Origin: a virus
Virus record (IMG/VR): IMGVR_UViG_3300045988_087130
Coordinates: 25,785-89,784 of that record
Direction: 5' to 3' (one strand)
Length of the DNA: 64,000 nucleotides
Positions 1-62,360 of this stretch are shown piece after piece. A model generated the notes under the pieces. It was not told the origin of the DNA and searched no databases. It saw nothing but the letters and a program-made list of their open reading frames with translations. Every line of letters begins with the position of its first letter. Positions within the stretch are counted from its first letter, which is position 1. A program made the position numbers and the translations under genes.

Positions 1-804
1 ACAAAGTTCATTGGGTTCTTTAACAAGTGGCGCAAGGAGTTAGAATCATATGGATATATCAACTTCGCTAAGGTGGTAAATGCAGCCGACTGCGGTGTTC
101 CTCAGAACAGAAAACGTGTCTTCATGCTCTCTATACGAAATGATGGTGATAAGATAGATTATCATTTTCCGAGAAAGACAAAGCTGGAGAAACACTTGGT
201 AGATGTCTTGGAGGAAAATGTTGAAGAGAAGTTCTATCTTGGTGATGATCTGTTAACAGATGAGTGGGGGTATCTGATGTTTAAAGGAAAGAAGATATTT
301 GAAAGCGGTGTTTGCGCAAGAGAACCTATAAGTGCAGCGTTAAGAACACGTTCCAATGGTAAATGGATAAAAGGTGAAAGGCATGAGCAAAAGGTAGAAT
401 TAGGAAAGAATGTGGCTAATGCTATAACATCGGTGAGTAAGGACTCCTTGGTTGTATTGGGATTTTCGAGAGGAAGGCGAGGCGAAGTAGTGAACTATCA
501 CGAAAAGAAGGTCTCTAACACCATTCATACGTCAAGTGGAAGTGGTGGTAATATGGATGAATTTGTGCTAAACAAAACAAGGTTGCGCATTAGGCGTTTG
601 ACTCCGAGAGAACTCTTCCGTTTGATGGACGTTGACGAAGAATACATAGACCGGATGCTTGAAAGTGGCGTATCGAAGTCAAGTCTTCAAAAAGCTGCTG
701 GAAACTCTATAGTTGTAGCGTGCATGGAAATGATTTTTGAGGAACTTTGGTTTCCCGATAATAATGTTAAGATTGCTGATGATGGTCAGCTGTGTCTATT
801 TTAA
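1..804 (+). CDS. DNA (cytosine-5)-methyltransferase, C-terminal part (5' end lies outside window)
   Basis: Frame is open to the window edge; C5-MTase motif VIII PQNRKRVF and motif X GNSIVV; track start at 73 is a GTG inside a longer frame. Confidence 0.8.
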   Translation, partial: TKFIGFFNKWRKELESYGYINFAKVVNAADCGVPQNRKRVFMLSIRNDGDKIDYHFPRKTKLEKHLVDVLEENVEEKFYLGDDLLTDEWGYLMFKGKKIFESGVCAREPISAALRTRSNGKWIKGERHEQKVELGKNVANAITSVSKDSLVVLGFSRGRRGEVVNYHEKKVSNTIHTSSGSGGNMDEFVLNKTRLRIRRLTPRELFRLMDVDEEYIDRMLESGVSKSSLQKAAGNSIVVACMEMIFEELWFPDNNVKIADDGQLCLF

Positions 805-5055: not shown

Positions 5056-5312
5056 TGAGAATAGAACCTAGTGAGTTCTTGCCGATAGGTAACGAATTTC
5101 AGAAAATCTTCGGTGTAAGCTTTGGAAAGTTTATAGATATGCGGTTTCTTTTGGCAAGAAAAGAACTGGTCTTCAACTTGCTTAAGTTCACGGATTGGCT
5201 TGAAGTGCGTTATCCGGATGAGTGTTTCATTGATGGAGTGAGTTACAATGCAGTTGTCGAGCGAAAGTTTGGCAAGCGAGGGGTTAAACTGATAAAAAAG
5301 TTATTAGGATGA
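5055..5312 (+). CDS. hypothetical protein
   Basis: 85-aa ORF. Confidence 0.4.
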   Translation: MRIEPSEFLPIGNEFQKIFGVSFGKFIDMRFLLARKELVFNLLKFTDWLEVRYPDECFIDGVSYNAVVERKFGKRGVKLIKKLLG

Positions 5313-6034
5313 AATATATGGGCAGCAAAGCGAGAATCGTGCATGAGATATTGCCGATTATGCAGGACAAGGAACATGATACGTTTGTAGATGCTTTCTG
5401 TGGTGGCTGTAGTGTTATTGAGAACGTTCCGGACACGTATCGCAGGATTGCCAACGATAAGAATAAGTATCTTATCGAAATGTGGAAGCATCTTCAGAAT
5501 GGAGGATTTGTCTTCAGTCATATTAGCAAGGAGACGTATGACAAGGCACGAGATTGCTATCACGGAAAGAATAATTTCTTTACGGAAGCTGGTGTAGGAC
5601 TAGTCGGCTTCATGGCAAGCTTTAATGGTCGCTTCTTTGATGGTGGCTATAGCGGACATAATGTTGTCGGCAAGAACGGAAAGGCAAGAGATTACATAAG
5701 GGAGCAGATTGAAAACACTATGCGTGATGTGCCTCTCATTAAAGGTGTTGAGTTCTATAGCGGCAGTTATGATGAACTTGTGATACCGGAGAGGAGTATA
5801 GTGTATTGCGATATACCTTACAAAGCTACGAAAAAGTACGATGTATCAAAGAACTTCGATTATGAAAGTTTCTATATTTGGTGCATGGAAATGGCTAGAA
5901 GAGGTCATAAGGTCTTTATCAGCGAGTACCAGATGCCACAAGAGTTCAGATGTGTTTGGGAAAAGGAAGTAACAAACTCTCTTAACCCGAATATCACAAA
6001 GAGACCAGTCGAAAGGTTGTTTACTATTGATTAG
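5309..6034 (+). CDS. Dam-like (D12-class) DNA N6-adenine methyltransferase
   Basis: N-terminal MKYMGSKARI and FCGGCSV (SAM motif I), downstream catalytic DIPY (DPPY-type) in the alpha-class order. Confidence 0.75.
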   Translation: MKYMGSKARIVHEILPIMQDKEHDTFVDAFCGGCSVIENVPDTYRRIANDKNKYLIEMWKHLQNGGFVFSHISKETYDKARDCYHGKNNFFTEAGVGLVGFMASFNGRFFDGGYSGHNVVGKNGKARDYIREQIENTMRDVPLIKGVEFYSGSYDELVIPERSIVYCDIPYKATKKYDVSKNFDYESFYIWCMEMARRGHKVFISEYQMPQEFRCVWEKEVTNSLNPNITKRPVERLFTID

Positions 6035-25778: not shown

Positions 25779-25805
25779 GGTGAGGCACACCCGAACAACT
25801 GCACA
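25779..25805 (+). promoter_or_regulatory. GGTGAGGCACACC..AACAACTGCAC element
   Basis: Exact motif 10 nt after the 25768 stop. Confidence 0.4.
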
Positions 25806-27188: not shown

Positions 27189-27220
27189 TTTGGTAGAGTG
27201 GAATATAATAGTTATCTTTG
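27189..27220 (+). promoter_or_regulatory. sigma-A-type promoter (TTTG-N20-TAtcTTTG)
   Basis: TTTG 27189, TAtcTTTG 27213. Confidence 0.45.
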
Positions 27221-27247
27221 TGGTCGAATTTCAAAACTTATAAGGAC

Positions 27248-29382: not shown

Positions 29383-29791
29383 CGATTTCAACGCTGCCGA
29401 TGAATTTGTCGTTGAGGCAATGATGCAAGATGGCAAATTCAAGGTTATCGGCAAGGTTATTATTGATAATAATCTTCTGAATGATGATGATTTGGAAACT
29501 ATCTGGGATTATGCCAACTGGGAGACGAACGGCTATGAAAAGATGGTTGTCTCTAACGGAGTGTACAAAGGCTTGAAAGCATTTAGCGATGGGCGTTTGT
29601 TCTATGTAATTACTGATGATGAGGTTGGAGTGGTAAATGACAATATCATGGTACGTAAGCATTATGATGTCAACAATGGCTATTATATTAAGTCATCAAG
29701 GTTGCACAAGGAACAATCCAGGGACTTATGGTGCTTTGGTAGCCGTGAGACTATTGAGAACGAATATAGGTCAAATAAAAAACTGTTTTAA
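29363..29791 (+). CDS. hypothetical protein
   Basis: 142-aa ORF. Confidence 0.4.
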   Translation: MRPIEISDFNAADEFVVEAMMQDGKFKVIGKVIIDNNLLNDDDLETIWDYANWETNGYEKMVVSNGVYKGLKAFSDGRLFYVITDDEVGVVNDNIMVRKHYDVNNGYYIKSSRLHKEQSRDLWCFGSRETIENEYRSNKKLF

Positions 29792-31026
29792 ATTGAGTAG
29801 TATGATTTCATACAAGTACAAGTTATACCGGACGAAGAAGACGAGGCATTTGGATAAGATGCTCCGAGAGGCTTGCTATGTTTGGAATCATGCGCTTGCC
29901 TTGCAGAAGAGATACTATAAGTTGTATCACAAGTATATTCCTAGATTTATGATGCATCATCATTTTGCTAAACGATATAAGCCAATTTTGCTTAACAGCC
30001 ATACCGTTAGGGAAATCTTGGATAGATTAGATGTAGCTTACAAGCGTTTCTTTAAGCATGATGCAAAGCGTCCACCTAAGTTCAAAAAGATGGTTGAATT
30101 TAGTTCGTTCGTTTTCAAAGATAATGGTTATTCCCTTAGTGGAAACGAGTTTGTGATAAACAAGATAAAGAAGTCCTTCAAGTTCTCTCTGAGCCGTCCT
30201 TACGATGGCAAGGTTAAGAGGGTATCAGTCAAGCGCAACAAGCTGGGCGAGTACTTCATTATCCTTTGCTTGGACAAGCAAGCCGAGCCTTACGGAAAGT
30301 CACACGATGGTGCATCCGTGGGCATCGACTTTGGATTGAAGAAGTACATGACTTTGAGCGATGGTCGTGAGATTGATAATCCTCAGTTCCTTAAAGCTGA
30401 CTTGCAGGAGCTTAGGCGCAGGTCTCGCAACCTCTCGAAGTGCAAGAAGGGCAGCAACAACCGCAAGCGCAAGAAGATGGAATTGGAGCGATTGTATCGG
30501 GATATTGTGAACAAACGTTCCGATTTCCAGTGGAAGCTGGCTCACGAACTTTGCAAGCGTTACGACTTGATTTGCTTGGAGGACTTGAACTTGGAGGTAA
30601 TGGCAAAGCGTTGGGGACGCAAGATGTCTGACTTGGCACATAGCGATTTCGTTGTGAAGTTGGAGCACGTAGCGAAGAAGTATGGCGTTAAGGTTCATAA
30701 GATAGACCGCTTCTTCCCATCGAGCCGCCTTTGCACTTGTGGTTATAAGAACGATAAGCTGTCATTGGGTGATAGGATTTGGACTTGCCCTAGTTGTGGT
30801 GCTGTTCATCCTAGAGACCTCTTCGCAGCTGAGAATATACTTCGGCAGGGCATTGCCGAATTGGGGAGTGGTAGTAAGTCACCCAAGCACTCGCAAGGGC
30901 GCAGCCACGTTAACAACCCAACAATCCCTTGTAAATAGCAATGGAGTGTGCCATGTATGCAATAGACTTAGCTCAACGCAAGCAACTTGAAGGATAAAAA
31001 CAAAATACAAAATTAAGAATAAGCAT
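29780..31026 (+). mobile_element. putative IS1341-like element (TnpB only); ends not defined
   Basis: Single tnpB with an 88-bp 3' flank before the next gene; compositional island. Confidence 0.4.
29802..30938 (+). CDS. tnpB: IS200/IS605-family TnpB (OrfB, IS1341-type), no TnpA partner
   Basis: N-terminal YKYKLYRTKKTRHLDKMLREACYVWNHALAL (OrfB_IS605 N-terminus) and C-terminal zinc ribbon CTCGYKNDKLSLGDRIWTCPSCGAVHPRD; GC-richer than its surroundings. Confidence 0.8.
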   Translation: MISYKYKLYRTKKTRHLDKMLREACYVWNHALALQKRYYKLYHKYIPRFMMHHHFAKRYKPILLNSHTVREILDRLDVAYKRFFKHDAKRPPKFKKMVEFSSFVFKDNGYSLSGNEFVINKIKKSFKFSLSRPYDGKVKRVSVKRNKLGEYFIILCLDKQAEPYGKSHDGASVGIDFGLKKYMTLSDGREIDNPQFLKADLQELRRRSRNLSKCKKGSNNRKRKKMELERLYRDIVNKRSDFQWKLAHELCKRYDLICLEDLNLEVMAKRWGRKMSDLAHSDFVVKLEHVAKKYGVKVHKIDRFFPSSRLCTCGYKNDKLSLGDRIWTCPSCGAVHPRDLFAAENILRQGIAELGSGSKSPKHSQGRSHVNNPTIPCK

Positions 31027-34888: not shown

Positions 34889-34961
34889 GCTGCATTAGAC
34901 AAGTGGTTAAGTCGCCAGTTTTTCACGCTGGTATTCAAAGGTTCGAATCCTTTATGCAGTA
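34889..34961 (+). tRNA. tRNA-Glu (anticodon TTC)
   Basis: Hand-folded: acceptor GCTGCAT/ATGCAGT, anticodon stem CCAGT/GCTGG with loop TTTTCAC, T-arm AAAGG-TTCGAAT-CCTTT. Confidence 0.6.
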
Positions 34962-34967
34962 CAAATT

Positions 34968-35038
34968 TGCCCTATGGTGTAATGGCAACACTACAGGTTT
35001 TGGTTCTGTCATTAGTGGTTCGAATCCGCTTGGGGCAA
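34968..35038 (+). tRNA. tRNA-Gln (anticodon TTG)
   Basis: Acceptor TGCCCTA/TGGGGCA, anticodon stem ACAGG/TCTGT with loop TTTTGGT, T-loop TTCGAAT. Confidence 0.55.
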
Positions 35039-35069
35039 CAAGGTGATATTTGATATGTATTCCACAAAT

Positions 35070-35154
35070 GGTGCAATATTCAAGCGGCTAAAGAAGACTG
35101 ACTGTAAATCAGTTCCCATTGCGGGTTCGGTGAGTTCGAATCTCTCTTGCACCA
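35070..35154 (+). tRNA. tRNA-Tyr (anticodon GTA), type II with long variable arm
   Basis: Acceptor GGTGCAA/TTGCACC; D-loop AGCGGCTAAA; anticodon loop CTGTAAA; variable arm CCC-ATTGC-GGG; T-loop TTCGAAT; 85 nt. Confidence 0.65.
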
Positions 35155-35178
35155 CAAGAGTAACTTTGTCAGATTACG

Positions 35179-35250
35179 GGGAATGTAGCTCAGAAGTAGA
35201 GCACTTGGTTCGTAACCAAGGGGGCATTGGTGCAACTCCAATCATTCCTT
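35179..35250 (+). tRNA. tRNA-Thr (anticodon CGT)
   Basis: Acceptor GGGAATG/CATTCCT, D-arm GCTC-AGAAGTA-GAGC, anticodon stem CTTGG/CCAAG with loop TTCGTAA; unusual T-loop TGCAACT. Confidence 0.5.
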
Positions 35251-35253
35251 TAC

Positions 35254-35325
35254 GCTTTCGTAGCTCAGTGGCAGAGCATAGGATTTTTAATCCTAGGGTC
35301 GAAGGTTCGAATCCTTCCGTTGGCA
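35254..35325 (+). tRNA. tRNA-Lys (anticodon TTT)
   Basis: D-arm TAGCTCAGTGGCAGAGC, anticodon stem TAGGA/TCCTA with loop TTTTTAA, T-arm GAAGG-TTCGAAT-CCTTC; acceptor stem has two internal mismatches, so ends are uncertain. Confidence 0.5.
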
Positions 35326-35498
35326 CAATGATACACAAGAAGAGAGCCGTGATGTTTGTTCTGTTGGAATCTCGGACATCTGTCAACGGATAACGTAGGA
35401 AGCAGATGGGGCGAATAAAGTTGTGAATAAGCTTATGAACTAGGGAAGCAAGCGGAATGGCCTCTTTTTTGTGCTTCATTTGATGGTTTAACGAAAAA

Positions 35499-36068: not shown

Positions 36069-36076
36069 AATTGATT

Positions 36077-37006
36077 ATGTCTAAGCAGACTGGTTTTTCA
36101 TTCGCAAGTTCAAAGAAGTCATTAATCGAGACTATTGACGAAATCAAGAAGTCAAAGATGCCTCGCAACGAAAAGATTGTTGCATTGAAGGCTTGCGGTC
36201 TTCGTGAGAAAGAAATCTCCGATATGTTGAAGGTTTGTGTACCAAGCGGTTCAACTTCAACGAGATTCGTTTATACATTCGGTGTTGAGATTGAATGTGT
36301 TCATGCCGAGCGCAATGCCTTGATAGAGGCGGGTCGTCAGAATGGTGTTGATATTCATTCTGAGGGCTATAACCACACCGACAACAAGAGTTATTTCAAG
36401 ATTGTTAGTGATTCTTCAGTTGGTGGTGATGTTGACCCTAACGAGGTTGTAAGTCCGGTATTGAATGGCAATACAAATGGTATGGCAACTTTGAAGAAGG
36501 CTATCAAGTCTTTGGATGCCGTAGGTGCAAGAGTAAATTCTACTTGTGGCCTTCACGTTCATATCGGTGCAGCAAAGTTGACAGGTGAGCAATATGTTAA
36601 CGTCTTCAAGAATTATCAGAAGCTTGAAAGATTGATTGATAGCTTCATGGCTCCTTCAAGAAGAGGCAATTGCCGTTGGGCAGCCAGCTTGCTTGACAAA
36701 GATTTCTCTAATTGCCGTGGCAATTACGATATTAGACGTAATGTATTTCATGGAGACAGATATTACAAGGTCAATGCAGAGAGTTTTGCACGTCACAAGA
36801 CTATCGAGTTTCGCCAGCATCAAGGTTCAACTAATTACAAGAAGATTGAAATGTGGGTTAAGTTCTGCGCAAAGCTTGTCGGTTGGTCTCGTAACAATGT
36901 CTTCACTAGTGAGGTTATGAACATCGAAGATATACCTTTCTTGAATAAAGAAGAAAAGGCTTTCTTCCAGAGCCGTAAGGATGCATTTGCAGCCAATAAC
37001 GACTAA
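36077..37006 (+). CDS. putative amidoligase (Amidoligase_2 family, glutamine-synthetase-like fold)
   Basis: FGVEIEC (E-x-E metal site) and CGLHVHIGA motifs typical of the phage Amidoligase_2 family; first ATG at 36077. Confidence 0.55.
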   Translation: MSKQTGFSFASSKKSLIETIDEIKKSKMPRNEKIVALKACGLREKEISDMLKVCVPSGSTSTRFVYTFGVEIECVHAERNALIEAGRQNGVDIHSEGYNHTDNKSYFKIVSDSSVGGDVDPNEVVSPVLNGNTNGMATLKKAIKSLDAVGARVNSTCGLHVHIGAAKLTGEQYVNVFKNYQKLERLIDSFMAPSRRGNCRWAASLLDKDFSNCRGNYDIRRNVFHGDRYYKVNAESFARHKTIEFRQHQGSTNYKKIEMWVKFCAKLVGWSRNNVFTSEVMNIEDIPFLNKEEKAFFQSRKDAFAANND

Positions 37007-37080: not shown

Positions 37081-37614
37081 ATGTGTGTTATTATTGTATG
37101 TCCGAAAGGTACTACTTTGCCATCCGTTGATGAGCTGAAGGCAGCGTATATGAGAAATCCCGATGGTTGCGGATTTGTGAGTGAGTCTGACCATTATAAG
37201 AGCTTGCATTTCTCTACATTTATACGTAGATTGATGAAGCGAGATATAAATGAGAATGTAATCATACATTTTAGATTTGCTACTCATGGTTCTGTCTGTG
37301 TCAAGAATTGTCATCCGTTCTACAAGGCTGGTTATTGGTTCGCCCATAATGGAGTGCTCCCGATCTGCTCCGAGCATGATAAAACGGATAGTCAGATTTG
37401 CTTTGAACGTTTCATTTATCCTACTATCAAGAAATATGGTTGGGGTTCTGATGAACATATGAAAGAAATGAATAAATGGACAGCTCATGGTTCTAAGTTT
37501 GCAATGTTGCATAATGGTGAGATTTTGAAGTCCGGTAAATTCATAGAGCGTGATGGACGGTTCTATTCTAATTTGAATCATTTGGGTTATATGAGAAATG
37601 TCATAAACTTTTAG
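37081..37614 (+). CDS. class-II (Ntn) glutamine amidotransferase domain protein
   Basis: N-terminal MC (Cys2 nucleophile) and HFRFATHGSVCVKNCHPF matching the GlmS-type H.R.AT.G....N.HPF motif. Confidence 0.55.
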   Translation: MCVIIVCPKGTTLPSVDELKAAYMRNPDGCGFVSESDHYKSLHFSTFIRRLMKRDINENVIIHFRFATHGSVCVKNCHPFYKAGYWFAHNGVLPICSEHDKTDSQICFERFIYPTIKKYGWGSDEHMKEMNKWTAHGSKFAMLHNGEILKSGKFIERDGRFYSNLNHLGYMRNVINF

Positions 37615-37839
37615 ATATTTTAATGTTTAGGTTCTTTTTAATTCGACAAGCGTCAGATGTCCGTGAGGATATTTGGCGTTTTTTTTTGTTATATAAGGCG
37701 TTTTATTTTGTGTTGCAATTAATTATTCATTTTTGTGATAAAATAGCCTTAAATCGCTTATAAATACCCTTATTACTCACTTTTAACCAAAAGTGAGATA
37801 CCTGCAAACGCTTTAATGCATTAATTGCTTTTTTCGTAT

Positions 37840-42725: not shown

Positions 42726-42760
42726 GAGGGGGATGGTATTACTGCCGTTCCCTTTTTTTA
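42726..42760 (+). terminator. rho-independent terminator
   Basis: GGGGGATGG-TATTACT-GCCGTTCCC (with wobble pairs) followed by TTTTTTT. Confidence 0.5.
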
Positions 42761-44127: not shown

Positions 44128-44265
44128 TTACTTGTGGTTATTTTTATACATCGGTTTTTATTAACGATTGTTTTTTATGGTAGATAAATGTATAAAAACG
44201 AGCACAAGTTCCCTTATAGATGGACTAAAAAAGATGCTAATTTCACAAAAGACAAAGGTAAGGTA

Positions 44266-45295
44266 ATGTCTTGCTTCTGTTGCGGAGGTGGCAGTTCCTT
44301 TGGTTATAAGTTAGCTGGCTACGATGTTGTAGCCTGTAACGAGATAGACCCAAAGGTTATGAAGATGTACTTGAAGAATCACGATGTCAAGTATTCTTTC
44401 AATTGTGATATTCGTGAGCTGATTGCCAATATCAATATAGGGGGGGCATATTATGAAAGAAGAGTTGCATAATCTGGATATATTGGATGCTAGTTTCCCA
44501 TGTTCGGTATTCAGTATTGCAGGTGACCGCCAAAAGGCTTGGGGAAAGGAAAAAGTATTCCGAGAAGGTCAGAAAGCACAAAGGCTTGACGATTTGGCTT
44601 TTTACTCAATCGCCCTCGCTCAAGAACTACAACCAAAGGTAGTGGTTTTTGAGAATGTCCAAGGTTTGTTGCAAGGTGAAGCTATCGAGTACGTGAAAGA
44701 GATTTACAGGCAGATGGATAATGCCGGATATATCTTGCAGCATTGGTTGCTTAATGCACGTAATATGGGTGTTCCTCAGAATCGACCTAGGGTGTTCTTT
44801 CTAGGATTACGCAAAGACCTTTGCAAGCCGTTTATGGTTCAGAAGGATTTGTTCGAGCGAGTGCCTAAGATAGATATGGACTTCAACGAGAAAGAAATTG
44901 TCTTGGATGAGTTTTCGGACTATAGTGGAAGACAGATTCCAAAAGGAGTGATGAAGTATTGGGAGCATAGAAACGAGAAAGACAATTCTATCGGTGATAT
45001 TGTCAAACGGATGGATAATCGTCTTTCTATGTTCAATAATATGTTTCTTAAAAAGGATAAAGTATGCAATACTATATCAGCAATGGAAGATAGGCTTGTG
45101 TATTTTGATAATCCAAGTTATATTTCAGCGCATGATACGATTTTAGCATCAACATTCCCGATGGATTATGACTTTAATGGCATGAAACCTTGGTTTGCTT
45201 GCGGAATGTGTGTTCCTCCAGTTATGATGGCTAATGTAGCTACGAGAATCTGGGATTGTTGGTTGTCAAAGATTAAAAAGGAGGAATGCGCATGA
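44266..45295 (+). CDS. DNA (cytosine-5)-methyltransferase interrupted by a frameshift at a G7 tract
   Basis: Motif I FCCGGGSS in ORF 44188-44472; motifs IV FPCSVFSIAG, VI ENVQGLL, VIII QNRPRVFF in ORF 44453-45295; the frames join if the G run 44440-44446 has 6 or 9 G. Confidence 0.7.
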
Positions 45296-46029
45296 TAACA
45301 GCAAGTATGAATTCGGGTGAGATGCGTAGGGTACGAAACTTAGATGAAGCTAGAATCTATGAGTTTCAGATGCGAAAAGCTAATGAGCTTAAACGTGAAA
45401 TGAGAAAGCAGAGTGTAAGACAGATAACCAAGACATACGAATTGGTTACACGGAATGCCGATTATTTCATCGTTGTAGGTGTAAAGCATGGAGGTGTCTT
45501 TGTCTCAGGTGTATTCATTTATCTGAAGGAAACTAACGAGTATATTCCTATGAGCAGAAATGAGGGGTATAGCGAGGATTGTTTTGCTATGAGCGTTCAT
45601 TTTCTGAAGAGATATGCAGAAAGGTATTTGAAAAAGGATTTGCCGATAGCAAAGATATTACAAAAGATATATACATCGTTTACAGGTGCGGTTCAGCTTT
45701 ATAGTGACGACAAGACAAAAAGGGTGGTGTTTGCTATTCCGGAAGGGCTTATACTCACAGAATACGAGCAAGAAAAGCGTATCATCCACTACAAAACCTT
45801 TGTAAGCATGGATATGCTAAAGAAGACACAAATGCAAAGTTACGAGAAGATTAGTGCATTTCTAATGGAATCATGTCAGCAAATAGCTATGGCAAGAGAA
45901 GCAGGAAATGACGAAAAGCTGGGCGTTGTGTACAGAAGGTTTTATGATGATATTGATTTGATAGATACAAAGGAGGCGCAAGCCATATATTCAAGTTTCT
46001 TCGAAAAAGGAGGTAACAATGAAAGATAA
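45286..46029 (+). CDS. hypothetical protein overlapping the C5-MTase stop (candidate restriction partner, unproven)
   Basis: 247-aa ORF starting 10 nt inside the MTase gene end; no recognisable motif. Confidence 0.4.
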   Translation: MRMITASMNSGEMRRVRNLDEARIYEFQMRKANELKREMRKQSVRQITKTYELVTRNADYFIVVGVKHGGVFVSGVFIYLKETNEYIPMSRNEGYSEDCFAMSVHFLKRYAERYLKKDLPIAKILQKIYTSFTGAVQLYSDDKTKRVVFAIPEGLILTEYEQEKRIIHYKTFVSMDMLKKTQMQSYEKISAFLMESCQQIAMAREAGNDEKLGVVYRRFYDDIDLIDTKEAQAIYSSFFEKGGNNER

Positions 46030-46522
46030 ATGTATAACAAGGTTTCTAGGTGATATTAAGCCTATAGAGAATTACGAAAGGTATTATGTTAGCAAGCTGG
46101 GACATGTCTTTACTATTGGGAGAACGTCTCAATTAAAGGAAATCGCACCTTGCAAGACACCAAAAGGTTATTTGAAGGTATGGCTTTACAAGAACGGAAA
46201 GCGAAAGATGTTCTATGTTCATCGTTTGGTAGCGCAGGCATTCTTGGAGAATCCAGATGCGTTGCCGATGGTGAATCATAAGGATTTCGACAAGACGAAT
46301 AACGATGTAGATAACTTGGAGTATTGTACCGCAAGATACAATGTGATTTATTCTGCTATAGCAAAGAAAACCTCTTCCGAATACTTGGGTGTGACTTGGA
46401 ATAAGAGTGTAAGAAAATGGCAAGCTCAGTACCAGGTAGGTAAGAAGAAAACTTATATCGGATGCTTTGGTACGCAAGAAGAGGCTCACGAAGCTTATGT
46501 TAACGCTATAAAAGAGATTTGA
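46019..46522 (+). CDS. HNH homing endonuclease (HNH_3) with AP2 DNA-binding domain
   Basis: VNHKDFDKTNNDVDNLEY (H-x-D...NN...NLE HNH_3 core) and YLGVTWNKSVRKWQAQYQVGKKKTYIGCFGTQEEAHEAY (AP2). Confidence 0.65.
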   Translation: MKDKCITRFLGDIKPIENYERYYVSKLGHVFTIGRTSQLKEIAPCKTPKGYLKVWLYKNGKRKMFYVHRLVAQAFLENPDALPMVNHKDFDKTNNDVDNLEYCTARYNVIYSAIAKKTSSEYLGVTWNKSVRKWQAQYQVGKKKTYIGCFGTQEEAHEAYVNAIKEI

Positions 46523-46523
46523 C

Positions 46524-47237
46524 ATGCTTAAATTTGATAGAATATACAATTCCGACTGTATAGAAGGAATGAAGCAAATAGGGAGTGGGGATGTCAATTT
46601 AATTGTTACTGACCCACCATATTGTATCTCCTATAAGACCGGATGGAGAGCAGACGACCATCGTTTTTCGAAGGAAATACTCAATGACGATAATGAGCAA
46701 TTGATTATTGATTATATGAGCGAATGCTACCGGATATTGAAGGATGATAGTGCCGCTTACGTCTTTTGTTCAGCTAAGACCTTGGACTTTTTTATGCAAC
46801 AAGCTAGGAACGCAGGGTTTACCATTAAGAATGTGCTCATTTGGCGAAAGAACAACCATACGGCTGGAGATTTAGAGGCGCAATATGGGCAATGTTACGA
46901 GCCAATCCTGTACTTGAATAAAGGCAGACGAACCATAAACGGAAAGCGTTTGGAGGACGTATGGGACTTTGATAGAGTTCCATCTGATAAATTGGTACAT
47001 CAGAATGAGAAACCAATTCCCTTGCTTATGCAATGCATCTTGAAATCATCGGACGAAGGAGATTTGGTATTTGATGGTTTTATGGGTTCAGCAAGTACTG
47101 CTCTGGCTTGTATGCGTACAAACAGGAATTTCCTTGGCTTTGAGTTAGACGGGGAATATTTCAAGGTAGCACAAAAAAGAATCAAAGAAGAAATGTTTAA
47201 TCAAAAAGATATGTTTGGATATGCTGGAGATAGATAA
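46524..47237 (+). CDS. beta-class N6-adenine/N4-cytosine DNA methyltransferase
   Basis: N-terminal catalytic TDPPY, C-terminal SAM site FDGFMGSASTALAC. Confidence 0.75.
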   Translation: MLKFDRIYNSDCIEGMKQIGSGDVNLIVTDPPYCISYKTGWRADDHRFSKEILNDDNEQLIIDYMSECYRILKDDSAAYVFCSAKTLDFFMQQARNAGFTIKNVLIWRKNNHTAGDLEAQYGQCYEPILYLNKGRRTINGKRLEDVWDFDRVPSDKLVHQNEKPIPLLMQCILKSSDEGDLVFDGFMGSASTALACMRTNRNFLGFELDGEYFKVAQKRIKEEMFNQKDMFGYAGDR

Positions 47238-47967
47238 GATTTATCAAGTTGATTGTCTGGATGGTATGAGCAAGATTGATGACAAGTCCGTCTCGCTTAT
47301 ACTCACAGACCCTCCATATGAAATTTCAAGGGATTCCAATTATGCAAAGTCCGCTCCTACTGGTAAAGATACTGATAGATTCCGCATATCTATCGACTTT
47401 GGAGACTGGGATAAACAGGAAGCATTTGATATAGGCTCTATGATAAAAGAATCCTACAGGTGCTTGAAAGATGGTGGATATATAGTTTGTTTCTATGATT
47501 TGTGGAAGATTGGGGTCGTAAAGGATGCGATGATTAATGTCGGATTTAAACAAATTAGATTTATAGAATGGATAAAAACAAATCCTGTTCCAATAAATAG
47601 TAAGACAAACTATCTCACAAACGCAAGAGAGGTCGCTGTGTGTGGGGTGAAAGGTAAAAATCCTATCTTTAAAAGCGAATATGACAATGGAGTATATAGC
47701 TTTCCAATCTGTCGTGATAAGGGGAGATTTCATCCTACCCAGAAGCCTGTTAGTCTTTTCAGAAGCATTATAAACAAGCATTCCTGCAAAGGAGATATTG
47801 TACTAGATTGCTGTATAGGTAGTGGAACTACGGCTATTGCGTGTATTCAAGAAAATCGTAATTTTATTGGTTTTGAAACTAATAGAGAGTTTTACGACAA
47901 AGCAAACGAGAGAATAGAAAATGAATTAATGATAAAGCAAGATAGTTTATTTAGTAATGAAAGTTAG
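47215..47967 (+). CDS. beta-class N6-adenine/N4-cytosine DNA methyltransferase
   Basis: TDPPY motif; C-terminal LDCCIGSGTTAIAC. Confidence 0.75.
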   Translation: MDMLEIDKIYQVDCLDGMSKIDDKSVSLILTDPPYEISRDSNYAKSAPTGKDTDRFRISIDFGDWDKQEAFDIGSMIKESYRCLKDGGYIVCFYDLWKIGVVKDAMINVGFKQIRFIEWIKTNPVPINSKTNYLTNAREVAVCGVKGKNPIFKSEYDNGVYSFPICRDKGRFHPTQKPVSLFRSIINKHSCKGDIVLDCCIGSGTTAIACIQENRNFIGFETNREFYDKANERIENELMIKQDSLFSNES

Positions 47968-48692
47968 TGGGTGATATGATGGAGCTAAATAGAATTTATC
48001 AAGGTGATTGCCGAAAGCTTCTAAAGCAGCTAGACGATGAATGTATAGACCTAGTATGCTCTGATGTTGCTTATCCGGTACAAGCTAGAGGTGGGCGCAG
48101 TAGTATGAGTGGATATTGGACGGATTCTCAAACTAGAAAAGGTAAGATATTCAAGAGTAATGACATAGATATTTCGGAGTATATCAACGAACTATATCGA
48201 GTACTAAAGGATAAGACTCATTGCTATCTTATGTGTAACGACTATAATCTGATGCACTTTCTAAATGAGATAGGACGGAGTGAGTTTCACTTCACAAAGT
48301 GTTTAATATGGGATAAATGCACTAAGGTGTGTGGAACGTATTATATGAACCAAAAAGAGTATATCATTATGCTTCGTAAGGGAGGTGGAAAGCCAATTAA
48401 TGAGTTTGGCACATCTGACATTCTGAGTGTTCCTATTCCAACCAACAAACGCAGGGATAAAGAAGGATTGATCAATCAGACCGAAAAACCAGTTAAGTTG
48501 ATGGAGATTCTAATCAGAAACTCAACAAATGTAGGTGATGTTGTTCTTGACCCATTTATGGGGAGTGGCACAACAGCAAGGGCTTGCGTTAATCTTGAAA
48601 GAAAGTATATAGGCTTCGAAATAGACCAGCGGCAAGTAGATTTTTCCAATAACGAATTAAAGAGCATGAGTAGGCAATTAAGTCTGTTTTAA
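47967..48692 (+). CDS. beta-class DNA methyltransferase homolog with atypical catalytic motif SDVAY
   Basis: Aligns with its neighbours (CSDVAY in place of TDPPY); C-terminal LDPFMGSGTTARAC is intact. Confidence 0.6.
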   Translation: MGDMMELNRIYQGDCRKLLKQLDDECIDLVCSDVAYPVQARGGRSSMSGYWTDSQTRKGKIFKSNDIDISEYINELYRVLKDKTHCYLMCNDYNLMHFLNEIGRSEFHFTKCLIWDKCTKVCGTYYMNQKEYIIMLRKGGGKPINEFGTSDILSVPIPTNKRRDKEGLINQTEKPVKLMEILIRNSTNVGDVVLDPFMGSGTTARACVNLERKYIGFEIDQRQVDFSNNELKSMSRQLSLF

Positions 48693-48696
48693 AACA

Positions 48697-48921
48697 ATGG
48701 ATATGAGTATGGTTATTCAATGTAACACAGTTGTAAGAAATGGGAATAAAGAGATAACGGATGCTCTTATAAAAGCCATTAAGGATGAAGCCTCGAAGCG
48801 TGGGTTGGTACGTGATGAATTGGTTGAATATTGCAACCAATTGTTAAGGAAAGGCGAAATCAAGGCTTGTATTAAGAATTTGTTTTATAATTTCAAACGT
48901 TATTTTTGGAGGTATTATTGA
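48697..48921 (+). CDS. hypothetical protein
   Basis: 74-aa ORF. Confidence 0.35.
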   Translation: MDMSMVIQCNTVVRNGNKEITDALIKAIKDEASKRGLVRDELVEYCNQLLRKGEIKACIKNLFYNFKRYFWRYY

Positions 48922-48922
48922 T

Positions 48923-49552
48923 ATGAGAAGAAGAAAGTTGAACAAGTCTCCAGTGTTAGGATTCTGCGGATTTGTTATCGGTTACGAGTGCAAGGAAAAG
49001 GGAATAAAGCTGATGGAGTGCGATAAGGCGCAAGCAGATGCAATCATAGTTCCTCATCACTTTTCACACAAGGTAACGAAGAATAGTTGCTTGAATCTTT
49101 TGGTATTGTATAAGGATAAGATAAGGGGTGCAATGCAAATAGGGTATGGAATCCGACCGCACATCAAGACTGAAAAGGGCGAAGTGTTGGATTACCATCA
49201 AGTGAGGGAATTTGACAGAATGTGGTTGTCTGATGATATGCCAAAGTTTAGTGAGACGATTTGCCTATCTCTTTTGCATAAGTATATTAGGGCAACACAT
49301 AAGGAAATCAAGTACCTTATATCTTATGCCGATACGTCCATAGGTAACAAGGGAACTATATATAAAGCAGCAAACTATGAGCATATTGATACCATTAAGG
49401 CAGATTTCTATGTGTTACCAAGTGGTGAGCGTGTGCATCCGGTTACTATGTGGCATCGGCACAAGACAAGAGCATGGGAGGTTCTAACGGAACTATACCC
49501 AGGAATAAAAAAGGCAGAAGGGTTTCAACTTAAATTTCTAAAGAAGTTATGA
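48923..49552 (+). CDS. hypothetical protein embedded in the methyltransferase array
   Basis: 209 aa; no recognised motif; sits between MTase paralogs. Confidence 0.4.
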   Translation: MRRRKLNKSPVLGFCGFVIGYECKEKGIKLMECDKAQADAIIVPHHFSHKVTKNSCLNLLVLYKDKIRGAMQIGYGIRPHIKTEKGEVLDYHQVREFDRMWLSDDMPKFSETICLSLLHKYIRATHKEIKYLISYADTSIGNKGTIYKAANYEHIDTIKADFYVLPSGERVHPVTMWHRHKTRAWEVLTELYPGIKKAEGFQLKFLKKL

Positions 49553-49764
49553 AGAAAAGAAATAAATATATTCCTTGTCATTTGCATCCAGATTCTGAGC
49601 ATTGGGTTAGAAAGGGGGACTCTTGGAAAGCAAAGATTGCTTACGAATCCGAGGAGGATGCTTGGGAGTTTCTGAACCAGCGATCCGAACTGAAGGCGAT
49701 TGGGTATGTGGCGTATCAATGTAAGACTTGCCATTTCTGGCACGTGGGGAGAAAACTATCGTGA
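49549..49764 (+). CDS. small zinc-ribbon-like protein
   Basis: CHLH...H and a C-terminal CKTCHFWH Cys/His pair. Confidence 0.35.
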   Translation: MKKRNKYIPCHLHPDSEHWVRKGDSWKAKIAYESEEDAWEFLNQRSELKAIGYVAYQCKTCHFWHVGRKLS

Positions 49765-49798
49765 AATGGTTTAACTGATAGAAATAGATTTATAGAAG

Positions 49799-50569
49799 AT
49801 GGAATTAAATAAGATATATAATGAGGATTGTCTAGTGGGAATGAAACAGATTCCGGACGCAAGTGTGGATTGTATTATCTGCGATTTGCCGTATGGTGCT
49901 CTCAATAAAAAGAGTGAGGGCGGTGGCTGGGATAGCATTATTCCGTTTGAACCATTGTGGAAGGAATATCTGCGCATAACCAAACCAAATGCAGCCATTA
50001 TTCTTTTCTGTCAAGGTATGTTTACCGCACAGCTTATGATGTCGCAGCCGAAACTCTGGAAATATAATCTTATTTGGAGCAAGCAGCGGGTAACAGGCTT
50101 TTTGAATGCCAACAAGATGCCTCTGCGCTCACATGAGGATATTGCAGTATTCTATCGGAAACAACCTATCTACAATCCTCAGATGGTAAAATGTGCGCCA
50201 CATCAAAGGAATCATCGAAGGGGCGATGGCTCTCATAGTTTGAAGCGAGGTTGTTATGGCGATCATAAAGAAGTGCCTACTATCATATCAGATGAGAAAT
50301 TCCCAAAGAGCATTATCTGCTTCGACAAAGAACATTCTGCCAACACCTTCCACCCCACTCAAAAGCCAGTCGCTCTTATTCAGTACCTCATCCGTACCTA
50401 CTCCAACGAGGGCGACACCATCTTAGACAACTGCATGGGCAGCGGTACTACCGCTATCGCAGCCATCCGTGAAAAGCGAAATTTCATCGGGTTCGAGTTA
50501 AATAAAGAATATTACGACAAGGCTTGTAAGCGCATTAAGTTAGAAATTATGCAACCCAGCCTATTCTAA
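49799..50569 (+). CDS. beta-class N6-adenine/N4-cytosine DNA methyltransferase
   Basis: CDLPY catalytic motif; C-terminal LDNCMGSGTTAIAA. Confidence 0.75.
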   Translation: MELNKIYNEDCLVGMKQIPDASVDCIICDLPYGALNKKSEGGGWDSIIPFEPLWKEYLRITKPNAAIILFCQGMFTAQLMMSQPKLWKYNLIWSKQRVTGFLNANKMPLRSHEDIAVFYRKQPIYNPQMVKCAPHQRNHRRGDGSHSLKRGCYGDHKEVPTIISDEKFPKSIICFDKEHSANTFHPTQKPVALIQYLIRTYSNEGDTILDNCMGSGTTAIAAIREKRNFIGFELNKEYYDKACKRIKLEIMQPSLF

Positions 50570-50588: not shown

Positions 50589-50975
50589 ATGAAAAAAGAA
50601 GATAGACTTAAAATATATCGCAAATACGATGGGCATTGTGCTTATTGCGGCAAGAGTATAGAGTATAAGGATATGCAGGTTGACCATCTTGTTCCGAAGA
50701 ATCGAGGTTGTTACTCTCGGTGGAGCGACAAGGAGGGAAGGTTTGTCGTTTTTCATGGCGATGACTGTATGGAGAACTATATGCCATCTTGCAGGTCTTG
50801 TAATCTTCGTAAGCGTGATATGAGTTTGGAACAATTTCGCTCAGAGATTACTAGACAGGCTAAAGGATTGCTTAATGGTAAGGCTTCTTTCCAAGTAAAG
50901 ATGTCGCTCGCTTATGGCTTAATAGAAGAGCACTTTGATAAACAAATTGAGTTCTATTTTGAGAAATTTAAATAG
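50589..50975 (+). CDS. HNH endonuclease (paralog of 63110-63520)
   Basis: CAYCG...DHLVPKNRG...CRSCNLRKRD HNH zinc-finger core; about 60% identical to 63110-63520. Confidence 0.6.
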   Translation: MKKEDRLKIYRKYDGHCAYCGKSIEYKDMQVDHLVPKNRGCYSRWSDKEGRFVVFHGDDCMENYMPSCRSCNLRKRDMSLEQFRSEITRQAKGLLNGKASFQVKMSLAYGLIEEHFDKQIEFYFEKFK

Positions 50976-60239: not shown

Positions 60240-61442
60240 ATGAATGAGTTTACAAAGGTCTTTGCAAAGACAATAGAAGATGAAGCTATCAAGCAGATAG
60301 AAGTTCTATCCAATAGCGATGCTTACTCTGGTTGTGAAATAAGAATAATGCCAGATTGTCACGCAGGTAAAGGCTGTACTATTGGCACGGTGATAGAGCT
60401 GGACAAAAGAGTAGTTCCTAACACCGTAGGAGTAGATATAGGTTGCGGAATGAAAGTCGTTAGACTTGGTAAAGTTAATATTAATCTACAGAAATTTGAC
60501 GAAGCAGTCAATACGTTGATTCCGTCTGGTTTTAATATCAACGAAGAAGCTTCTGCATACATACATGGATTAGTTGACGGCAATATGTTTGGTAAATTTC
60601 GTTCTTGGGATAGTATTAATGGGATGGATATAGTATATCGTTCTGTTGGTTCTCTTGGCGGTGGCAATCACTTTATTGAGTTAGATGCAAATGAAGAAGG
60701 AGAGAAGTTTCTTGTGATACATACAGGAAGTAGAAACCTTGGTGTTAGGGTATGCAACTATTACCAAAAACTTGCCTACGAGTATTGTCGTAAGAAAATA
60801 GCAGATAAGTCTGAGGTTATTGCCAAGTTGAAAAGCGAAGGAAGAGAAAAGGAAATACAGAGTGCTATAAAGTTGTTAGGTACTAGAGATATTAGCAAGG
60901 AACTTTCTTACTTGGAGGGCGATTTGCTTGATGATTACTTAAATGATATGCGTATAGTTCAGAAGTATGCCGAGCATAATAGAAGAATTATAGCTAACAG
61001 ACTCGTCAATGCTCTAGGTGTGGATATTGACCCAAATTCAGACAAGCATTCTTTTACAACTATTCACAACTATATAGATACAGACAAGGGCATATTGCGA
61101 AAAGGAGCTATCAGTGCAAAGAAAGACGAGATTGTCATTATTCCTATGAATATGCGTGACGGTTCTCTTATCTGTAAAGGTAAAGGAAACAAGGAATGGT
61201 TATGCTCAGCCCCACATGGCGCAGGTAGATTAATGTCTCGTACACAGGCAAAGAAAGAGTTATCTATGGATTCTTACAAGAATGAAATGAATGGTATCTA
61301 TTCCACATCAGTTTGTGAAGAAACCATTGATGAAGCACCTATGGCATACAAACCAACCGAAGAGATTGTTGAGCTAATAAAACCTACGGTTGATGTGATA
61401 GATGTTATTAAACCAATTTACAACTTTAAAGCAAAATTATAA
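60240..61442 (+). CDS. rtcB: RtcB-family RNA ligase (short form)
   Basis: RtcB hallmarks MPDCHAGKG, VGVDIGCGM, GGGNHFIEL, HNYID, SAPHGAGR all present. Confidence 0.75.
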   Translation: MNEFTKVFAKTIEDEAIKQIEVLSNSDAYSGCEIRIMPDCHAGKGCTIGTVIELDKRVVPNTVGVDIGCGMKVVRLGKVNINLQKFDEAVNTLIPSGFNINEEASAYIHGLVDGNMFGKFRSWDSINGMDIVYRSVGSLGGGNHFIELDANEEGEKFLVIHTGSRNLGVRVCNYYQKLAYEYCRKKIADKSEVIAKLKSEGREKEIQSAIKLLGTRDISKELSYLEGDLLDDYLNDMRIVQKYAEHNRRIIANRLVNALGVDIDPNSDKHSFTTIHNYIDTDKGILRKGAISAKKDEIVIIPMNMRDGSLICKGKGNKEWLCSAPHGAGRLMSRTQAKKELSMDSYKNEMNGIYSTSVCEETIDEAPMAYKPTEEIVELIKPTVDVIDVIKPIYNFKAKL

Positions 61443-61645
61443 TGAGCAAGGAAACATTTGACTTCTCGGAGGCTCTGAGAAGAATGAAGGAAGGGAAGAA
61501 AGTGAGAAGGGTAATTTGGGAAGAATGTGGAGCTTATATCCATATTGTCTCTGAGACTATTGTGGCTGTATGCGATGGGCAATTCTTTCCTTGTGTTTTC
61601 AAAGATTCTGAGGATATACTTGCAACAGACTGGGAGGAGGTGTAA
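61442..61645 (+). CDS. hypothetical protein
   Basis: 67-aa ORF. Confidence 0.35.
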   Translation: MSKETFDFSEALRRMKEGKKVRRVIWEECGAYIHIVSETIVAVCDGQFFPCVFKDSEDILATDWEEV

Positions 61646-61647
61646 GG

Positions 61648-61713
61648 ATGAAAAAGAAAGTATTGACCCTCACCGTCAGCAAGCAGTGGTTCGACATGAT
61701 AGTAGTATTATGA
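61648..61713 (+). pseudogene. 21-codon 5' fragment duplicating the start of ASCH-like gene 62362
   Basis: MKKKVLTLTVSKQWFDMIVVL* against MKKILTLTVNKEWFSRILLGEK... at 62362; the HNH gene lies between them. Confidence 0.4.
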
Positions 61714-62360
61714 TAAAAGGAACAGAAGTAAATATCATACAAGGTGAAATTTGGAAGCCCATAAAAGGTTACGAAGGTTTATATTTTATTAGTAATCTTA
61801 GCAGGGTGAAAAGGATTACACCCAGAGGTAAGTTTAAGGAACGTTTATTGTACAAGAGACAAAATGATGCAGGTTATTGGTGCGTGTCACTTTGTAAGAA
61901 CGGAAAAGCAAAATGTAAGCGTGTACATAGATTGGTTGCTGAAGCGTTTATTCCTAATCCCGAGAATAAAACACAAGTTGGGCATAAAGACGAGACTCGG
62001 ACTAATGATTCTATCGAAAACTTAGAATGGGTAACTCCGAAAGAAAATTGCAATATGCCGTTACATAAACTGCGTATTGCTAACTCACAAACTGGGAAAA
62101 AGGATAGTTTGGAAACTAAACTAAAGAAACGCAATGCACAATTGGGAGAAAAAAGTCATTTATACGGCAAGAGGGGTAAAGATAATAGGTTTTCTAAACC
62201 CATATTGCAATACAATAAAAATGGCGAACTAATGAAGGAATACGAAAATGCTGAAGAAGCGTATAGAATTACGGGAATAGCAAGTTCGCATATCAGAGAA
62301 TGTTGCAACGGTTTAAGAAAAACCTCTGGTGGATATTGTTGGAAATTTAAAAATAAATAA
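61710..62360 (+). CDS. HNH homing endonuclease (NUMOD4 + HNH_3)
   Basis: IKGYEGLYFISNLSRVKRI (NUMOD4) and VGHKDETRTNDSIENLEWVTPKEN (HNH_3); the long track ORF 61527 begins upstream, but ATG 61710 follows the fragment stop. Confidence 0.65.
   Translation: MIKGTEVNIIQGEIWKPIKGYEGLYFISNLSRVKRITPRGKFKERLLYKRQNDAGYWCVSLCKNGKAKCKRVHRLVAEAFIPNPENKTQVGHKDETRTNDSIENLEWVTPKENCNMPLHKLRIANSQTGKKDSLETKLKKRNAQLGEKSHLYGKRGKDNRFSKPILQYNKNGELMKEYENAEEAYRITGIASSHIRECCNGLRKTSGGYCWKFKNK

Follow-up and report, generated by a model that had tools for sequence, protein, structure and literature searches.

A phage DNA-modification island with a length-variable G tract, a probable ON/OFF switch, in its cytosine methyltransferase gene

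The IMG/VR virus record IMGVR_UViG_3300045988_087130 contains a group of closely packed genes for DNA methyltransferases (MTases). We have analysed positions 25,785 to 89,784 of this record, a stretch of 64,000 nucleotides (nt) that is referred to here as the window and is numbered from its first letter. The region at 44.2–51.0 kb is a co-directional, operon-like DNA-modification island. The genes between 44.1 and 51.4 kb are all on the plus strand and -20 to +34 nt apart, and several of them overlap in the ATGA manner. The MTases of the island are one cytosine-C5 enzyme (C5) and four beta-class enzymes (M1–M4), and a gene of the Mom family lies among them. Such an arsenal is in itself ordinary. 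The noteworthy parts are the probable switch in the C5 gene, where a run of G residues of variable length sets the reading frame, and the subfamily to which the Mom protein belongs. The locus as a whole is probably best explained as a modification island that combines a C5 switch with exchangeable gene cassettes.

The original prediction presented the C5 gene as a single open reading frame (ORF) at 44266–45295. This interval is 1030 nt, which is not a multiple of 3, and is made up of two frames that meet at a run of seven G residues (G7). The features of the C5 gene are:

44171..44176, plus strand: T6 run, 12 nt upstream of ATG 44188 (T6 in 76, T7 in 6, T8 in 3 and T9 in 3 of 88 loci)
44188..44472, plus strand: C5 5' piece with motif I, FCCGGGSSFGY (start at ATG 44188 or 44266; PF00145 positions 2–51; premature TAA)
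44439..44446, plus strand: putative hypermutable tract, A+G7 (G7 at 44440–44446); ATG-GGG-GGG in the in-frame relatives and here ATA-GGGGGGG, one base too long (OFF)
44453..45295, plus strand: C5 3' piece with motifs IV (FPC), VI (ENV) and VIII (QNRPR) (PF00145 positions 56–322, E 2.2e-31; frame open from 44441)

It is due to the frameshift that the 5' piece ends at a premature TAA. Together the two pieces span positions 2–51 and 56–322 of the 324 in the PF00145 profile, and the motif strings FCCGGGSSFGY, SFPCSVFS, VFENVQGL, and PQNRPRVF are all present. The nearest solved structure to the repaired or relative C5 protein is 8yf3 (E 1.5e-33), and M.HaeIII is also matched. The only close relative among the GenBank phages, MT835576.1 from human faeces (~95% identity), has a single C5 ORF of 368 amino acids (aa) in which the tract is ATG-GGG-GGG.

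Is the split gene an error of assembly? Fourteen loci were obtained from ENA and Logan contigs encoding the neighbouring ORF, and a scan of IMG/VR added 80 loci. The C5 gene is split, as it is in the window, in 8 of the 14 loci from the independent ENA and Logan assemblies. Three of these eight (L010, L011, and L014) have ATG with G8, and the loci of the window type have ATA with G7. The other six have an in-frame G7, and in one of them, L008, the gene is shortened by a separate C-terminal lesion. Assembly error was rejected as the source of the ATA+G7 allele because the same split is present in at least eight independent assemblies. The view that the tract was unchanged and an A had been inserted was revised when the G8 alleles were found, and ATA+G7 would most simply be a G8 tract in which the first G has changed to A.

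Tract alleles were counted in 92 loci aligned over ~3 kb, from C5 to M1. There are 60 loci with G7, 15 with G8, six with G6, and one with G9; in addition there are six with ATA+G7, two with ATA+G6, one with ATA+G8, and one in which the tract is interrupted (GGGGAGG). The gene is in frame in 63 of these loci and out of frame in 29. Ten pairs of loci with 0.000% divergence in their masked flanks (~3 kb) differ in tract length; for example, on identical flanks L095 has G6, L088 and L089 have G7, and L083 has G8. Of the eight flank haplotypes that recur three are mixed, and parsimony on a neighbour-joining tree requires at least 24 ON/OFF changes (mean with shuffled labels, 28.5). In the two ATA+G6 loci the reading frame is restored, as would be expected of a reversible switch, and this suggests that reversal has occurred. 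The interrupted tract, in L076 (IMGVR_UViG_3300045988_096313), reads Met-Gly-Arg and, as a naturally occurring 'locked-ON' variant, would hold the reading frame open.

The remainder of the C5 gene is largely free of damage. In silico repair of the tract yields a clean ORF of full length from each of the 29 OFF alleles, and lesions elsewhere in the gene are present in only three of the 92 loci. All three are on a G7 background, with premature stops after residue 328 (L008), 120 (L053), and 25 (L063) despite the in-frame tract. A tract of 7 nt explains 29 of the 32 disrupted alleles of this 1-kb gene. An old pseudogene was rejected as an explanation because no tract-OFF allele carries a second lesion. 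In comparisons of the window with L001 and L004, from which the ratios below are also taken, the ratio of nonsynonymous to synonymous substitution rates (dN/dS) is 0.03–0.06 for the C5 gene, and every island gene for which the comparison is usable is under purifying selection.

The tract has been kept in every lineage, including those in which synonymous sites are saturated. GGG accounts for 8.3% of the Gly codons in 25 genes of the phage, and GGGGGG is found in none of 42 other Gly-Gly dicodons. Among the diverged lineages L002 and L003 have G7 and L100 has CTG-GGG-GGG, the preceding codon being CTG and not ATG; L097, the most diverged locus, has G6 and is frameshifted (OFF). The 64-kb window has just one long homopolymer besides G7, an intergenic T9, and coding runs of G4–5, A6, and T6 have 0–2 length variants in 16–91 loci.

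In the mechanism we propose, G7 on an ATG background, or G6 on an ATA background, would give a full-length C5 enzyme and other lengths would truncate it after motif I. Tract length would change by slippage, and the genome in the window, being ATA+G7, would be in the OFF state. 5-methylcytosine (m5C) would shield the DNA from some type II enzymes but expose it to methylation-dependent (type IV) nucleases. Each burst would then be a mixture of methylated and unmethylated genomes, which would spread the risk between hosts with methylation-sensitive (type II) and hosts with methylation-dependent (type IV) restriction. We consider a genuine hypermutable ON/OFF switch in the C5 gene to be probable on the pattern of alleles. 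Adaptive bet-hedging by this switch is put forward more tentatively, and it is from the same alleles that we infer both the reversibility and the adaptive value of the switch. In our reading, long homopolymers in this phage are truly unstable and one that lies within the C5 gene has been kept as a switch. It is conceivable, with about the same reserve as for bet-hedging, that this is a polyG contingency locus in which high-rate switching of m5C is combined with an adjacent Mom subfamily that may install a different adenine hypermodification.

Several points weigh against the switch. All of the tract lengths are consensus calls, known from assemblies and not from reads, and many of them come from one IMG/VR compilation (3300045988). 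There is no second coding G7 run to act as a matched control for homopolymer error. Three longer T runs, T9 at 37679, T7 at 42753, and T6 at 44171, which are outside ORFs or at their very start, likewise vary in length, and neutral instability of homopolymers may explain part of the pattern at the G tract. Among the alleles with ATA it is the out-of-frame G7 that is most frequent, a distribution that speaks against the ON state being strongly selected. The OFF alleles may also be leaky, by ribosomal or transcriptional slippage, or the two fragments of the protein may complement one another.

Does the G tract then vary through sequencing or assembly noise, or through neutral or mildly deleterious slippage in a dispensable, partly decaying gene? 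The T runs, the ATA alleles, the derivation of the lengths from assemblies, and the three loci with other disrupting lesions would all fit such an explanation. However, the split allele is present in at least eight independent assemblies made by different assemblers, so that at least this allele is heritable, and one third of the loci deviate from G7. The consensus error in short-read assemblies is expected to be far below this. Coding runs of G5, A6, and T6 hardly vary, the C5 gene has a low dN/dS, the tract-OFF alleles are free of second lesions, and the GGG-GGG codons are kept, despite 8% GGG usage, in lineages with saturated synonymous divergence. Noise or neutral slippage is on this evidence unlikely to account for the pattern, and a genuine switch remains our preferred explanation.

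The three T runs can also be described in their own right. The T9 run (37679–37687) is intergenic, after a GATase_4-like gene, and among relatives it is T6 in 20, T7 in 20, T8 in 20, and T9 in six; it may lie within a promoter region that precedes the capsid module. The T7 run (42753–42759) is at the start of ORF 42733 and is T6 in six, T7 in 13, and T8 in three. The T6 run at 44171–44176 could tune C5 expression independently of the G tract.

The island around the C5 gene is also variable in its gene content, which was scored across 98 loci. The remaining features of the island are:

45292..46029, plus strand: ORF245, conserved lineage-restricted protein directly after the C5 gene (ATGA overlap); 98/98 loci; dN/dS 0.08–0.12
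46019..46522, plus strand: HNH-AP2 (NUMOD4) homing-type endonuclease (HNH_3, AP2, NUMOD4; PHROG 59, E 9e-39; PADLOC homing-endonuclease models); 98/98 loci
46524..47237, plus strand: M1, motif IV TDPPY, motif I FMGSASTA (PF01555, E 1.1e-36); core gene; dN/dS 0.10–0.12
47215..47967, plus strand: M2, motif IV TDPPY, optional cassette (PF01555, E 1.2e-35; probable start ATG 47221); 36/98 loci
47967..48692, plus strand: M3, proline-less motif IV SDVAY, FMGSGTT (PF01555, E 7.8e-31); core gene
48697..48921, plus strand: small 74-aa ORF between M3 and Mom; 85 loci; dN/dS 0.2–0.3
48923..49552, plus strand: Mom-family protein, 209 aa (GNAT-type, adenine-N6 hypermodification family; PF25680, E 3e-35); 91 loci; dN/dS 0.02–0.03
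49549..49764, plus strand: 71-aa Cys/His-rich protein, putative zinc ribbon (4-nt overlap with the Mom stop; weak match to PHROG 15216)
49799..50569, plus strand: M4, motif IV CDLPY, rare optional cassette (PF01555, E 4e-33; PHROG 67, E 1.4e-78); 5/98 loci
50589..50975, plus strand: HNH128, free-standing HNH endonuclease, optional (Pfam HNH; PHROG 2118, E 1.7e-36); 76 loci

The array consists of a fixed core (C5, ORF245, HNH-AP2, M1, M3, and Mom) and of cassettes (M2, M4, and HNH128) that are gained or lost between near-identical genomes, and the window holds almost the largest version of it. C5, ORF245, and HNH-AP2 are universal, M1 and M3 are in 96 loci, and the shortfalls in these two and in Mom come mostly from truncated contigs. 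HNH128 is present in all five of the M4 loci. M2 is absent from L004 and L005, and in L002 and L003 its position is taken by a different PF01555 gene of 268 aa and a 103-aa ORF; one further locus also carries a different PF01555 gene at this position. M4 is missing from the 95%-identical MT835576.1, where the recombination breakpoint is within the 3' end of the 71-aa gene. The 74-aa ORF has no family match in Pfam or PHROG searches.

Two more MTases are encoded in the window outside the island:

1..804, plus strand: second C5-cytosine MTase, cut by the window edge (PF00145 positions 123–322, E 4e-25; motifs QNRKR, ENV, GN)
5309..6034, plus strand: D12 (Dam) class N6-adenine MTase, motif IV CDIPY (PF02086, E 4.5e-17, above the cut-off)

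Much of the earlier inventory was borne out by Pfam. The four beta-class genes at 46524, 47215, 47967, and 49799 all belong to PF01555 (E 1e-31 to 1e-37), the second C5 gene to PF00145, and the Dam-like gene to PF02086, and the HNH endonucleases at 46019 (HNH_3+AP2+NUMOD4) and 50589 are likewise as predicted. The count of seven MTases in the window also holds: when the remaining 101 plus-strand ORFs were compared with Pfam, none of the 25 families listed was a further MTase family, and in a motif scan no additional ORF of the window was found to have (D/N/S)PP(Y/F/W).

In M1–M4 motif IV is at residues ~30–35, N-terminal to a (F/C)xGS(G/A)(T/S)T motif at ~185–215. The motif IV strings, TDPPY, TDPPY, SDVAY, and CDLPY, are those first reported. 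The accompanying claim that all four enzymes retain F.GSGTT is correct for M3 (FMGSGTT), but M1 has FMGSASTA, and M2 and M4 have C(I/M)GSGTT. Similarly, all four are beta-class enzymes as proposed, but they are not recent tandem duplicates: M2–M4 are only 31–33% identical to M1, and recent tandem duplication was rejected on this ground. Judged by their sequences, they are old paralogs or separate acquisitions.

M1 and M2 have the canonical DPPY. M3 has DVAY and M4 DLPY, both of which keep the D and the Y, and the CDIPY of the Dam-class enzyme (5309–6034) is the third non-canonical tetrad in the genome. Both prolines are indeed absent from the M3 motif, but the suggestion that this is a sign of lost activity does not stand, since SDVAY is kept in 13 of 14 M3 relatives examined, down to 80% identity (the other has SDVVY), and M3 has a dN/dS of 0.03–0.10. 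In alignment the DPPY of CcrM corresponds to the DVAY of M3. Motif IV was also surveyed in the 150 top-ranking sequences of an exhaustive search that covered 1.8 billion cluster representatives. Among these 150, TDPPY occurs in 79, D-x-P-Y with a non-proline x in ~22, DPAY in five, and DVAY in four, and the D and Y are nearly invariant. The M4 subfamily is very large, with D-L-P-Y in 121 of 121 sequences, down to 65% identity. SDVAY and CDLPY look like working, conserved variants of subfamilies and not like decay.

The 209-aa protein at 48923–49552, which had been listed as unknown, belongs to the Mom family. It matches PF25680 with 122 bits against a cut-off of 27.1 (E 3e-35), PHROG 1384 (E 2.6e-32), and, over residues 3–176, the structure of Mu Mom, 8bv8_A (E 1.1e-23). 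Mu Mom is a GNAT protein with an essential helix-turn-helix (HTH)-like insertion (PMC13219725). Its target is adenine N6 in double-stranded DNA, to which it attaches glycine taken from Gly-tRNA(Gly); the product rearranges to 6-NcmdA (Silva et al. 2026, PMC13219725). By homology with Mu Mom, the enzyme of the island probably acylates adenine N6 using an aminoacyl-tRNA. None of the tRNA genes in the window, five in number (34889–35326: Glu-TTC, Gln-TTG, Tyr-GTA, Thr-CGT, and Lys-TTT), is a tRNA-Gly that could supply it. Mom-like matches were found in 177 GenBank phage records by tblastn.

In Mu Mom R111, S124, and R151 are essential, and H58, Y59, D149, Y159, W48, and W181 are important (PMC13219725). 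The pairwise HMMER alignment to 8bv8 by which the two proteins were put into register was checked with the S124A mutation of the crystal structure; it extends as far as Mu residue 187, and the HTH-like insertion of Mu is at ~175–209. R111, D149, H58, and Y159 are conserved in the window protein. Five positions are changed: S124 to Thr, R151 to Ser, Y59 to Phe, W181 to Arg, and W48 to Asp. Of the essential residues R111 is kept, and S124 and R151 are not. Across 120 homologues of at least 62% identity and the query, the states T, S, and R are found in 113, 117, and 120 of the 121 sequences, respectively. On this alignment the Mom homologues define a coherent subfamily with fixed states at the altered sites. 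In four loci (L010, L011, L012, and L014) Mom has been called as 179 aa in place of 209, with a few 5' substitutions and no indel, and these calls probably reflect the choice of start codon and not truncation.

M3 is upstream of Mom throughout the lineage, either directly or with the 74-aa ORF between them. Might M3 above all, and the other variant-motif enzymes, be inactive DNA-binding proteins, act on another substrate, or be accessory or specificity factors for Mom? Besides this constant position and the loss of both motif IV prolines from M3, a PF01555 gene also adjoins Mom in an unrelated Mom locus, L099. Outside the lineage obligate coupling of M3 and Mom is not supported, as a 70%-identical Mom in another phage (L098) has no MTase neighbour. 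Mu Mom works in vitro with no need for a phage partner protein (PMC13219725). M3 itself conserves the SAM-binding FMGSGTT together with the D and Y of motif IV and has a low dN/dS, and motifs with one proline or none are found repeatedly in the clade, in many of its 50%-identity clusters. We regard these alternative roles as quite improbable and favour active, conserved MTases. The 71-aa Cys/His-rich protein was considered as a possible counterpart of Com; no family match points to this, and the gene is downstream and not upstream of Mom.

What is the island for? Very probably it is an anti-restriction DNA-modification island, a role that is deduced from the absence of a cognate nuclease. The orphan enzymes would mark the phage's own DNA, so that the restriction systems of various host strains could not cut it. 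A broad anti-restriction suite had been proposed for these genes; the dense set of orphan modification enzymes agrees with this and, with the addition of Mom, is broader than was claimed. It is from these same genes that we infer the anti-restriction role and the activities and specificities of the enzymes. Some findings sit less easily with this. Motif IV is non-canonical in M3, M4, and the Dam-class enzyme. The Mom homologue has Ser in place of the Mu-essential R151 and Thr at S124, so its chemistry is uncertain. The host assignment is weak, the available genome bins being in conflict (Segatella and Waltera).

The MTases could instead serve mainly in regulation by the phage or lysogen, such as in the timing of expression, in packaging, or in epigenetic changes to the host. 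Prophage-encoded MTases that alter host phenotype are known (PamA, PMC13076061), one relative has an integrase, and repressor and antirepressor-type genes are present in the window. Seven MTases of three classes, a Mom-type hypermodifier, and turnover of the cassettes would, however, fit an arms race better than a fixed circuit, and there is little likelihood that regulation is their main purpose.

ORF245 bears on whether the C5 enzyme has a restriction partner. A 10-nt overlap of an ORF starting at 45286 with the C5 gene had been noted as an arrangement typical of an MTase gene followed by its nuclease gene. The probable start is ATG 45292, which gives an ATGA overlap, and ATGA-type overlaps run along the whole string of genes, so that the C5/ORF245 overlap is not diagnostic. 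ORF245 has no match in Pfam, PHROGs, or PADLOC. Its 75 homologues in the databases are confined to this phage group, with the exception of one at 34% identity. An AlphaFold2 model from 13 sequences is confident (predicted local distance difference test 82.6, predicted template modelling score 0.79). A Foldseek search of the PDB with this model gave nothing at E<=0.001, and against BFVD there was one match, to an uncharacterised siphovirus protein. The sole functional lead is a weak RelE-like sub-domain. The type II restriction enzyme suggested at 45286–46029 is thus not borne out by this confident model, which has no restriction-nuclease fold, or by any nuclease family match. No restriction endonuclease was recognised beside the C5 gene, the HNH genes being of the homing-endonuclease type by PADLOC. 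A type II restriction-modification (R-M) pair of C5 and ORF245, for which the ATGA overlap and strict co-occurrence in 98 of 98 loci, including lineages at 63–65% identity, could be cited, is very hard to reconcile with an ORF245 that lacks nuclease features and stays intact in the 29 genomes with a frameshifted C5, a state that an active cognate nuclease would not tolerate.

The phage is a large tailed phage of the human gut, roughly 100–130 kb; related contigs reach lengths of 108–134 kb, and a single one has 222 kb. Its host probably belongs to the Bacteroidota, for example to Segatella/Prevotella. Shine-Dalgarno sequences are at 26% of start codons against a background of 24%, and the leaders are A-rich; this lack of enrichment favours a Bacteroidota host. 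Only two contigs were found in metagenome-assembled genomes (MAGs) of GTDB; one, 91% identical, was binned with Segatella copri, and the other, 63% identical, with Waltera. The integrase of the relative L002 is of the Phage_int_SAM_5 family, and the window also encodes a tape-measure gene, a capsid E-family gene, and antirepressors.

Other genes of the window and its relatives were recorded in passing. An Amidoligase_2 gene (36071–37006) is followed by a weak GATase_4 gene (37081–37614) just upstream of the capsid genes, and both are kept in L002 and L004. Pairs of this kind have been connected with peptide or base-modification chemistry. At 29637–30938 there is a TnpB/IS605 OrfB gene that has a Cas12f-like TNB domain, and in L100 a TnpB and a Y1 transposase are just downstream of the modification island. 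The window also has a gene for an RtcB RNA ligase (60240–61442, E 7e-64), a ThyX-like protein (27218–28144) that matches only positions 59–187 of the Thy1 profile, and a third NUMOD4/HNH_3 homing-type endonuclease (61527–62360). At 19465–20160 of L004, a 122-kb contig, a protein with Sequestin and Tad2-like domains is encoded ~9 kb downstream of the island. A family of that name has been connected with anti-Thoeris counter-defence.

Of the defences of bacteria restriction-modification is the most common, and strains of gut Bacteroidota differ widely in their R-M systems and methylation-dependent nucleases. If our interpretation is true, fixed modifications, swapped cassettes, and one toggle would together keep many host strains open to a single lineage of phage. 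The island also offers small MTases with natural non-DPPY motifs and an abundant Mom subfamily as possible DNA-modifying tools. For annotation there is a caution, in that the split C5 gene resembles a pseudogene or an assembly error, yet is a recurrent allele.

Phage clusters of orphan MTases and Mom-like genes are established anti-restriction devices. As in such clusters, the MTases here stand alone, are of different classes and co-oriented, and have no cognate nuclease; they are in a non-structural region with homing endonucleases interleaved and belong to the standard families PF00145, PF01555, and PF02086. The island differs in being unusually dense, with its MTases and Mom in 6.3 kb, in having its core and cassettes resolved over ~98 genomes, and in the conserved non-DPPY motif IV (DVAY, DLPY, or DIPY) of three of the five amino-MTases of the window. 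With Mu Mom (8bv8; PMC13219725; Karambelkar et al. 2020, PMC7261163) the island shares a homologous phage gene in an anti-restriction context. Unlike in Mu, R151 is Ser, S124 Thr, W181 Arg, and W48 Asp across a large subfamily in which these states are fixed, there is no com-like gene upstream, a small Cys/His protein is encoded downstream, and the gene is embedded among MTases.

Phase-variable MTases are well known in bacteria (PMC7383803, PMC4889913, PMC13076061). As in bacterial phasevarions, such as the polyG tract of cj0031 in Campylobacter (PMC4889913) and those in surveys of simple sequence repeats (SSRs; PMC7383803), a coding homopolymer here sets the frame of an MTase, and ON and OFF alleles are found in closely related genomes. 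Unlike in these phasevarions, the enzyme is a phage-borne orphan C5 MTase and not of Type I, III, or IIG, the tract is short (G6–G9), and the probable host is a Bacteroidota gut commensal. We found no report, in open-access text, of a phage-borne MTase with a tract that varies in length across natural populations. The nearest case is an SSR in the Bibersteinia trehalosi prophage MTase M.Btr192IV, where 12 copies of CAAG are present, both gene copies have the same length, the gene is not expressed, and the significance was unclear to its authors (PMC4996451). Both repeats are within the coding sequence of a phage-borne MTase, but that of the C5 gene is a homopolymer with length polymorphism across a population. 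If the switch is real, it would be the first phage-borne phase-variable DNA MTase supported by population data.

In Campylobacter phages, polyG tracts are reportedly in the genes for receptor-binding proteins. According to the account given of them in a later paper, these hypermutable tracts vary host recognition and evade resistance (Sorensen et al. 2021, Cell Rep 35:109214, cited in PMC12823448). As far as that account goes, the two systems are alike in that a phage-encoded polyG gives ON/OFF diversity within populations, and they differ in that the tract described here is in a DNA-modification gene and in the groups of phage and host concerned. Phase variation by polyG, in phages so far tied to host recognition, would then extend to epigenetic counter-defence by the phage.

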